8,586 nt of DNA from a virus. The stretch is taken from UHGV virus genome UHGV-1973422. The stretch is one strand, 5' to 3'. A model generated the notes under the pieces. The model did no database searches, was not told the origin of the DNA, and saw only the letters and a program-made list of their open reading frames with translations. This document shows, piece after piece, positions 3,766 to 4,425 of the stretch (position 1 is the first letter of the stretch; each line of letters opens with the position of its first letter). The translations under genes were made by a program, and so were the position numbers.

Positions 3766-3999
3766 TCATTGGTCACAGACCGTAATCCACTGGCCCAGGA
3801 CGTCTTTCAGGCAATGTTGGCATAAATCCAGTTTTAAGCGATTACTGTCACCAAAAATTGAACCGTATCCAGCTAAGTGATTAACAGACAGAAACTCATT
3901 GAACTCAATGTCATCTACCACCGTCTTCGCATGGCGACCACAGCGATCGCAGGTCTTCGCACATAACATTACAGTATCGCTGGATGTGAAAAATTGCAT
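3766..3999 (-). CDS. Small zinc-ribbon-like protein, 77 aa, with paired Cys motifs (C-x3-C-x2-C ... C-x2-C)
   Basis: AGGAGA Shine-Dalgarno 4 nt upstream of ATG 3999-3997. Translation contains CAKTCDRCG and CQHC about 40 aa apart. No confident family assignment. Confidence 0.55.
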   Translation of the reverse strand: MQFFTSSDTVMLCAKTCDRCGRHAKTVVDDIEFNEFLSVNHLAGYGSIFGDSNRLKLDLCQHCLKDVLGQWITVCDQ

Positions 4000-4116
4000 T
4001 TTATCTCCTCGTAATGCTGCCGCGCCGAATCAGCAATAACGCTAAAAAAACAGAATTGTTCGGCTTGGCCAACCCCTGACACTAACAAAAGCAAGTTTTG
4101 TCACTGTCCGGGGTTA

Positions 4117-4425
4117 TCATATAAACCAATAGACCGTCCTTACGCCATTCTGGTTATCAATAACATAGCCGCATTGTTTCCTTAAAAATTCTTCTGCTAA
4201 ATCAATGGCTTTTACAGAAATCTCATAAGAAGGAAGTAAAGTGTATCCTTTCCCTTCACTGGCAGCTGCTTTGATCGCATCCAGAGTATTATCAATCAGT
4301 AACAGAGCAAGTGATGCTTCATTTACCTGAGCCGAAGAACTTCTGGCTGCAAGTGTCATTGTTTTTGCTTCTTCCGCTGTAATCGTTCGTTCTGCCAGAG
4401 CAGATAAAATCCCATAAGAATCCAT
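4117..4425 (-). CDS. Hypothetical protein, 102 aa, on the phage strand immediately after the gIV-terminal hairpin
   Basis: ORF with ATG 4425-4423 and only a weak GGGG Shine-Dalgarno. N-terminal half is Ala-rich and likely helical. No recognisable motif. Confidence 0.45.
   Translation of the reverse strand: MDSYGILSALAERTITAEEAKTMTLAARSSSAQVNEASLALLLIDNTLDAIKAAASEGKGYTLLPSYEISVKAIDLAEEFLRKQCGYVIDNQNGVRTVYWFI

Follow-up and report, generated by a model that had tools for sequence, protein, structure and literature searches.

What is the function of the two small genes that separate the last core gene of a dif-integrating filamentous phage from its attachment site? The question is raised by UHGV virus genome UHGV-1973422, a stretch of 8,586 nucleotides (hereinafter designated the window) that amounts to about one unit, 8586 of 8601 nt, in the tandem array formed by a CUS-1/YpfPhi-type inovirus of E. 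coli. The phage strand is the minus strand, which carries gII, gV, gIII, gVI, gI and gIV together with two accessory open reading frames (ORFs) located between the secretin gene gIV and the dif-like phage attachment site (attP). The original prediction had placed the two frames on this strand, in a region where Ff phages have no genes, and both are found at exactly those positions:

4117..4425, minus strand: ORF102, 102 aa, ATG start (PHROG 4115; RefSeq WP_000378924.1)
3766..3999, minus strand: ORF77, 77 aa, ATG start (PHROG 5435; RefSeq WP_001159442.1)

By analogy with longer relatives of ORF77, the reading we favour, at a probability of about 0.4, is that ORF77 would be a small protein, stabilised by zinc, that regulates or neutralises an effector of toxin or defence type, an orphan-antitoxin-like piece of cargo, and that ORF102 would be a further host-interaction cargo protein.

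The length of an ORF is no proof of a gene at this locus: the window also contains chance frames of 88-97 aa in antisense. These chance frames of like length, and the lack of a Pfam family for either ORF, are what speaks for spurious or decaying frames in a non-coding intergenic region, an explanation that is very improbable in view of conservation. ORF77 and ORF102 each match a PHROG family over their full length (phrog_5435, E = 4.5e-46, residues 1-77, and phrog_4115, E = 2e-68, residues 1-102, respectively; both annotated as 'unknown function'), and homologues or identical copies number in the hundreds to thousands, with the exact proteins present on at least 1000 contigs. Divergence is biased towards the third codon position, with 30/16/50 differences at positions 1/2/3 and 29 synonymous codon changes between ORF102 and its counterpart in a Salmonella relative (hereinafter designated L017), and with a similar pile-up between ORF77 and five homologues, e.g. 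21/9/45; the fold prediction for ORF77 is, moreover, confident. The PHROG matches, the copies and the third-position divergence show both ORFs to be genuine protein-coding genes under protein-level selection, in a region that holds no genes in Ff phages. Lack of conservation, or homology to unrelated housekeeping functions, had been named at the outset as what would count against the two accessory genes; both ORFs are conserved. The strong Shine-Dalgarno sequence and Cys motif described for the 77-aa protein are also borne out, in that GAGGAG is followed by five bases and the ATG, and the protein contains two CxxC motifs. The ribosome-binding site of ORF102 is only of a weak GGGG type. Pfam, NCBIfam and PADLOC scans of both proteins return sub-threshold noise only, and a PDB sequence search with profiles of both families returns nothing. 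RefSeq labels both proteins 'hypothetical', and their UniRef cluster labels read 'n=20 / n=19 Enterobacterales'.

Both genes are part of the phage backbone and are conserved within the lineage. The window is 99.7% identical over its full length to the inovirus array of strain HUM3355, in which three tandem copies lie between hipA and ydeT at the dif locus; ORF77 is the terminal gene at the array end, where a perfect E. coli dif (GGTGCGCATAATGTATATTATGTTAAAT) begins ~38 nt past its stop codon, and the prophage junction on the hipA side is a hybrid site. Among 5426 complete E. coli genomes, 47 hold at least 80% of the whole window, which matches complete, CUS-1-like prophages in them, and the ORF102/ORF77 region is held at a level of at least 80% in 49 E. 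coli genomes. A 7938-nt circular Salmonella 'plasmid' (L088), which is the replicative form of this phage type, encodes identical ORF102 and ORF77 proteins and carries a Doc-family toxin gene as opposite-strand cargo; IMG/VR contigs also carry both proteins, again with differing cargo on the opposite strand. The existence of these accessory ORFs is already known from YpfPhi and CUS-1. YpfPhi is an 8.7-kb inovirus that forms tandem arrays at dif and has a CTXPhi-like inverted pair of Xer sites, the CUS-1 prophage of E. coli K1 (O18:K1:H7) is 99% identical to it with the accessory ORFs conserved, and the attR-adjacent ORFs, YPO2280a/YPO2281 in YpfPhi, were given 'no predictable function' (PMC4266046). 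The gene map of the window is the same as the YpfPhi map in that work, and, by position and organisation, ORF102 and ORF77 appear to be the E. coli copies of YPO2280a/YPO2281.

ORF77 belongs to a large family with a compact cysteine framework. A single-sequence search yields 14 relatives, and a profile built from those extends the family to 1656 clusters. The two Cys pairs of ORF77, C17-x2-C20 (CDRC, residues 17-20) and C60-x2-C63 (CQHC, residues 60-63), are embedded in the family signature CDRCG...EFxEF...GYGSxFGDG...(D)LCQHC...LGxW. Residues C20, E35, G44, S47, F49, G50, D51, C60, Q61 and C63 are invariant in 64 diverse members, and C17 (at least 90%), D18, E32, D58, L59, H62, L68, G69 and W71 are nearly so; Ser replaces C17 in one subgroup (P0008). 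In the AlphaFold2 (AF2) model of ORF77, which has a predicted local distance difference test score (pLDDT) of 86.8, the first CxxC is located in the knuckle of a beta-hairpin and the second where a helix begins. Because of this placement, the predicted fold is that of a treble-clef zinc finger, and we infer that the protein binds zinc. The small zinc-ribbon protein of the original prediction therefore survives as a four-Cys zinc-finger-type protein with a modelled treble-clef arrangement, whereas the directionality or DNA-binding role attached to it is not supported. No real PDB relative of the model is found; the weak fold matches include the DNA/RNA-binding zinc fingers of PARP-1 and eS26. 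ORF77 is acidic (isoelectric point (pI) 5.36), as is most of the family (pI < 7 in 88% of 113 cores), and its C-terminus lies 14 residues past the second CxxC. This domain family is not covered by any Pfam, NCBIfam or PADLOC model and may be the new part of the present analysis.

The longer members of the family provide the link to antitoxins. C-terminal extensions are present in 40 of 60 distinct family members from a metagenome sample, and the 45 long forms include 14 with PF09722, the Xre/MbcA/ParS toxin-binding domain, and three with DUF4926, a predicted immunity partner of BECR toxins (BECR-Tox3 RNases). A split version of the same architecture is seen in a Tn7-like element, wherein a 78-aa zinc-finger gene overlaps a 69-aa PF09722-only gene by 4 bp. 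The 102-aa form found in UPPhi and on Klebsiella plasmids has a tail like the CcdB-binding C-terminus of CcdA (Pfam CcdA, E = 0.007, below threshold). The long forms come first in tight two-gene operons with effector-like proteins: SNase nuclease genes directly downstream at four loci, with gaps of 2-3 nt, an Mrr_cat nuclease at another, and a DUF2971 protein that matches the PADLOC defence candidate PDC-S31 (E = 1.8e-36), DUF2971 being predicted to be a DarT/AbiGi-like ADP-ribosyltransferase (PMC12522546). By these architectures, the ORF77 domain is the constant N-terminal half of various modular antitoxin-like proteins, and ORF77 is a solo copy of that half.

In four inovirus lineages, a homologue of ORF77 comes last or next to last in the gene order ahead of a dif or dif-like site:

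Lineage 1: the CUS-1/YpfPhi-type phage of the window
Lineage 2: UPPhi-type phages (L019/L020), homologue 64% identical
Lineage 3: Klebsiella phage (L062-66), perfect dif 210 nt downstream
Lineage 4: Providencia phage (L069-72) with a Rep_trans replicase, DUF2158 gene after the ORF77 homologue

A CcdB-like toxin candidate past the UPPhi homologue was rejected, as its 99-codon frame starts with TTG, has an odd composition and overlaps attP. Other homologues lie at the cargo end of the Tn7-like element, in a Thauera integrase island, on 30 PLSDB plasmids and in small-gene arrays of many tailed-phage contigs. No recurrent neighbour emerges from 41 viral contexts, in which terminase, HNH, methylase, ribonucleotide reductase and integrase genes are among the neighbours, and the scan for dif-like sites, which covered the loci of the Rep3 plasmids, the Tn7-like element and the long forms, found none within 1.5 kb of the homologues. 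The Rep3 plasmids (L005-L007) are 7-8 kb in size, come from Providencia/Proteus, and carry a TraY-like/ParE pair, an 844-aa SIR2-STAND protein (nSTAND NTPase) and a divergent 78-aa ORF77 homologue.

Across these inoviruses the two genes part company. L017 keeps an ORF102 homologue and has ~330 nt of unrelated sequence in place of ORF77, and the reverse, an ORF77 homologue with no ORF102, is seen in the UPPhi-type, Klebsiella and Providencia inoviruses. Within the window, the two genes are separated by 117 nt that contain a conserved hairpin. Because each occurs without the other across inovirus lineages, ORF77 and ORF102 are two independent genes and not a functional pair. A further tandem prophage (NZ_CP024275.1 1686756-1699319, hereinafter designated L078) has unrelated ORFs of 82 and 65 aa between gIV and attP. 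The contents of this interval differ among L078, L017 and the ORF77-only lineages, and the interval is therefore a cargo slot with shuffled contents.

ORF102 has a far narrower distribution. A profile search of 1.84 billion representatives returns seven matches, and all but one, a weak partial match, come from this phage lineage (E. coli, Salmonella and Citrobacter); P0135 is a distant partial relative. ORF102 is thus confined to the CUS-1/YpfPhi-type lineage. The Salmonella variant (L017/L018) is 61% identical, with residues 1-35 variable and residues 36-102 conserved. The ORF102 model (pLDDT 70.7) consists of three helices followed by a strand-helix-hairpin unit, residues 36-102 forming a helix-strand-helix-hairpin, and the modelled C-terminal half weakly resembles a winged helix. 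ORF102 is a cytoplasmic-type, acidic (pI 4.68), lineage-specific protein. Kinship with the post-gIV gene of the Providencia inovirus was tested, and the two are unrelated. Apparent gII-ORF102 fusions were rejected as a clustering artefact chained via one chimeric Citrobacter sequence. That sequence, P0019 from a 3550-nt contig of Citrobacter youngae, has about 43 N-terminal residues of gII fused to the part of ORF102 that starts at residue 36, and it gave rise to an artefactual cluster at 90% in which gII fragments and ORF102 are mixed; the chimera itself implies a deletion derivative, a miniphage or a remnant, from which nearly all phage genes have been lost. In a scan of genome representatives with ORF102, the sole match is a 25-kb contig (JARKOR010000214.1, L008) in a 'Candidatus Nanosynbacter' (Saccharibacteria) metagenome-assembled genome, which carries the phage with proteins 96-100% identical (ORF102 and ORF77, 100%). 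This near-identical copy of the enterobacterial phage is almost certainly a binning contaminant.

ORF102 and ORF77 occupy the cargo slot between gIV and the attachment site. In the favoured reading, to which we assign the above probability of roughly 0.4, ORF77 would act in the cytoplasm, where it would neutralise or regulate a toxin or defence effector and, as an orphan-antitoxin-like protein, might help the phage or episome to persist in defended hosts; ORF102, with its putative winged-helix-like C-terminal domain, would probably be another host-interaction cargo protein. Several observations weigh against this reading. ORF77 lacks the toxin-neutralising C-terminal extension (PF09722, DUF4926 or CcdA-like tail) of its relatives, in which the known toxin-binding part is the C-terminal domain; the zinc-finger half may serve in DNA binding, dimerisation or sensing. 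No recognisable toxin lies beside it, its neighbours being attP and ORF102, for which no toxin family or fold match is found. The PF09722 fusions themselves have no canonical RES/ART toxin gene downstream. The presence of homologues next to dif in four inovirus lineages could reflect an Xer-related role and not merely a shared cargo slot, and none of 50,697 GenBank phage records contains an ORF77 homologue. For ORF102, the model is only moderately confident and its fold matches are weak (Z <= 6.7). Because ORF77 has neither a toxin-binding extension nor an adjacent toxin, the antitoxin-type role is an extrapolation from its relatives. A broader version would make the ORF77 family a promiscuous, hitherto undescribed zinc-finger module of antitoxin or immunity proteins, combined with tails of the PF09722, DUF4926 and CcdA-like kinds and with effectors such as SNase, Mrr and DarT-like proteins, whose solo copies would have been captured as counter-defence genes by mobile elements, among them four independent lineages of filamentous phages that integrate at dif; such copies could blunt DNA-targeting abortive-infection toxins, to which a single-stranded DNA (ssDNA) phage would be especially exposed. 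We consider this broader version doubtful.

Three other roles have to be set against the regulator or neutraliser. ORF77 could instead be a zinc-finger transcription factor, its domain representing the DNA-binding and dimerisation half of antitoxins in place of the helix-turn-helix (HTH) of the Xre type, and the solo protein would then act as a repressor at its own promoter or at others of the phage or cargo, e.g. via a 106-nt module upstream of the gene. Canonical type II antitoxins have an N-terminal DNA-binding domain, and the ORF77 domain is always N-terminal, ahead of toxin-binding domains such as the PF09722 of the 14 long forms; the orientation of the gene, divergent from the SIR2-STAND gene on the Rep3 plasmids, the conservation of the upstream non-coding module and the weak matches to the PARP-1 and eS26 zinc fingers point the same way. 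The protein is acidic, however, and no basic residues are conserved, which argues against this main rival, and we consider it less probable than the favoured reading. A toxin-antitoxin (TA) pair, in which the zinc domain of ORF77 would neutralise ORF102 and the two would stabilise the prophage or episome as an addiction module, is unlikely. It would have the toxin first, as in mqsRA, where the toxin gene is followed by the gene for the zinc-domain antitoxin, and the arrangement here, a gene for ~100 aa ahead of one for a zinc-domain protein, does recall that operon in order and size; the ORF77 domain is, in addition, found in antitoxin-like architectures, and these phages have other TA-type cargo, e.g. 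the Doc-family toxin in L088. Yet the two genes occur independently (L017 versus three ORF77-only lineages), the 117-nt gap with its conserved hairpin leaves them uncoupled, ORF102 matches no toxin family or fold, and the YpfPhi episome is reported to disappear readily on subculture (PMC4266046), unlike an addiction module.

The remaining role, and the one originally proposed for the 77-aa protein, is that of a recombination-directionality factor (RDF) or DNA-binding factor, that is, an Xer-accessory protein acting, with or without ORF102, at attP/dif. In its favour, ORF77 ends ~38 nt before dif in the prophage, homologues hold the last or next-to-last position before such a site in four distinct lineages, and XafT of TLCPhi sets a precedent, being a phage-encoded Xer activation factor. 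Xis-type RDFs are typically basic, however, and both proteins here are acidic (pI 5.36 and 4.68); Pfam and NCBIfam scans place neither in an Xis/RDF or XafT-type (DUF3653) family, and they occur independently of each other. The family is common on Rep3 plasmids, in the Tn7-like element and on tailed-phage contigs, and the loci scanned for a dif-like site (plasmid, Tn7-like and long-form) have none within 1.5 kb. L017 integrates at dif without any ORF77 homologue. CTXPhi-type ssDNA integration, moreover, requires host XerCD alone (PMC4266046). We therefore regard the Xer-accessory proposal as quite unlikely, and integration or excision as an unlikely function for ORF77 in general. Backbone conservation, mutual independence and the antitoxin-associated domain therefore favour neutralisation of toxins or defence, together with regulation, over integration as the function to probe.

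The two genes are set among conserved non-coding elements, all on the phage strand:

4451..4499, minus strand: hairpin 1, ~20-bp stem, 5' arm overlapping the gIV stop codon (DNA fold -17.3 kcal/mol, z = -5.8)
4013..4118, minus strand: conserved non-coding module between ORF102 and ORF77, 106 nt (hairpin 2 and ~60 nt up to the ORF77 ribosome-binding site)
4071-4115, minus strand: hairpin 2 (fold z = -3.75)
3631..3730, minus strand: attP(+), two inverted dif-like sites around a GC hairpin, CTXPhi type (fold -35.8 kcal/mol, z = -6.0)

Both landmarks between which the accessory genes had originally been placed, the gIV hairpin and the dif-like site, are real by these fold scores. The pairing of hairpin 1 is kept in L017 via two double compensatory changes. 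The hairpin has no T-run and fails the intrinsic-terminator consensus; it could be a transcription attenuator, a packaging signal or an ssDNA origin element. The 106-nt module is 87% identical to positions 6461-6564 of the UPPhi-type L078, where it is flanked by the unrelated 82-aa and 65-aa ORFs and precedes the latter; in L017 the corresponding segment is 7567-7640, and hairpin 2 is preserved in L017 and L078 despite base changes. The module resembles a portable element of the cargo slot with a regulatory or origin-like role, and the hairpins and module could serve as transcription attenuators, a packaging signal or minus-strand origin elements. No Rfam family is found anywhere in the window, and a scan of 3550-4600 for sigma-70 promoter and intrinsic-terminator consensus sequences found none; co-transcription of ORF102 and ORF77 with gIV is plausible. 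On the packaged strand attP(+) folds into a forked hairpin, and an attP(+) of the CTXPhi type has been proposed for YpfPhi (PMC4266046). A segment at the attP flank (3632-3704, one dif-like arm and the GC hairpin, 71-73 nt) recurs at ~94% identity in ~900 E. coli records, many of them F-type plasmids. In the one plasmid inspected (L077, 2501-2571), the copy directly follows an STM4504/CBY_0614 family gene; the plasmid copies are probably a remnant of cargo of an integrative mobile element exploiting Xer (IMEX) that moved to plasmids.

The core genes with mapped positions are as follows:

391-708, minus strand: gV (from the ORF listing)
720-1814, minus strand: gII (from the ORF listing)
4495..5862, minus strand: gIV, secretin gene, last core phage gene and upstream neighbour of the accessory genes (ORF listing and RefSeq annotation)
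7213-8577, minus strand: gIII

RefSeq labels the gIV product 'secretin N-terminal domain-containing protein', and the gene shares ~80% nucleotide identity with gIV of IKe and PEar across ~190 nt. gIII contains five tandem GGGES repeats (region 7683-7862) and, after them, more repeats rich in G/S, as is usual for the glycine-rich linker in g3p attachment proteins; it is the most variable core gene among relatives (51% identity in L017). The plus-strand cargo block (1942-3631) holds ORFs of 60, 140, 155 and 123 aa, all PHROG 'unknown', and varies among otherwise near-identical phages; the 155-aa ORF has a weak PADLOC match to PDC-S57 (E = 3e-4), and the corresponding block of other isolates carries a Doc-family toxin, an STM4504/CBY_0614 family protein or a PD-(D/E)XK nuclease. 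The block suggests a hotspot for defence or TA cargo. L078 is a tandem UPPhi-type prophage with a different structural module, in which the 140-aa and 155-aa plus-strand proteins are identical to those of the window and a third is closely related; the attP region of L078 is 98% identical to that of the window, and the ORFs past gIV differ. The sharing is evidence that modules are exchanged among dif-integrating phages. Between the plus-strand ORFs, a 48-nt segment (2641-2688) matches a portion of the 'major intergenic region' of Escherichia phage If1 at 95.8% identity; this segment, the fold of which is not significant (z ~ -1.5), may be an origin or packaging-related element.

For Y. pestis and extra-intestinal E. 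coli, fitness or virulence has been linked to the phages YpfPhi and CUS-1, and a review of YpfPhi names the terminal ORFs of unknown function as the key open question (PMC4266046). If the counter-defence role were true, it would be the first function for the ORF77 counterpart among YPO2280a/YPO2281 and might bear on how the phage is maintained in Y. pestis and extra-intestinal pathogenic E. coli (ExPEC). What is possibly new here is the tie between ORF77 and a large antitoxin- and defence-associated zinc-finger family that has been captured repeatedly at the dif-proximal end of inoviruses.

Compared with type II antitoxins, whose C-terminal modules (Xre/MbcA/ParS PF09722, CcdA or DUF4926-type) are carried by ORF77 relatives either fused or in an overlapping downstream gene, ORF77 has the N-terminal zinc-finger half only, with no toxin-binding tail and no adjacent toxin, and the N-terminal domain of its family is a zinc finger instead of an HTH, ribbon-helix-helix (RHH) or AbrB domain. 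MqsA (YgiT), an antitoxin with a small four-Cys zinc-binding N-terminal domain whose cognate toxin gene comes first in the operon, offers a likeness in this respect, its N-terminal domain resembling the four-Cys zinc domain of ORF77. Small phage proteins beside an attachment site are also the common ground with XafT of TLCPhi and the Xis-type RDFs, from which ORF77 differs in being acidic, in having no family match and in its spread far beyond Xer-dependent elements. The slot between gIV and the dif-like site is used for cargo in other inoviruses as well, by ctxAB in CTXPhi and by two unknown genes in UPPhi (PMC4266046; PMC7307601), so that accessory genes beside attP flank the core inovirus genome in each case; the CTXPhi genes, in contrast to those of the acidic, cytoplasmic ORF77 and ORF102, encode a secreted toxin and are unrelated to them. 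The closest likeness is that to YpfPhi and CUS-1, phages of ~8.6-8.7 kb that are arranged in tandem at dif and have a CTXPhi-like double attP. No substantive difference from them is apparent, only the opposite-strand cargo at the other end varying among isolates, and YPO2280a/YPO2281 of YpfPhi and their CUS-1 homologues lie, like ORF102 and ORF77, just past the secretin gene and adjoining attR/dif.

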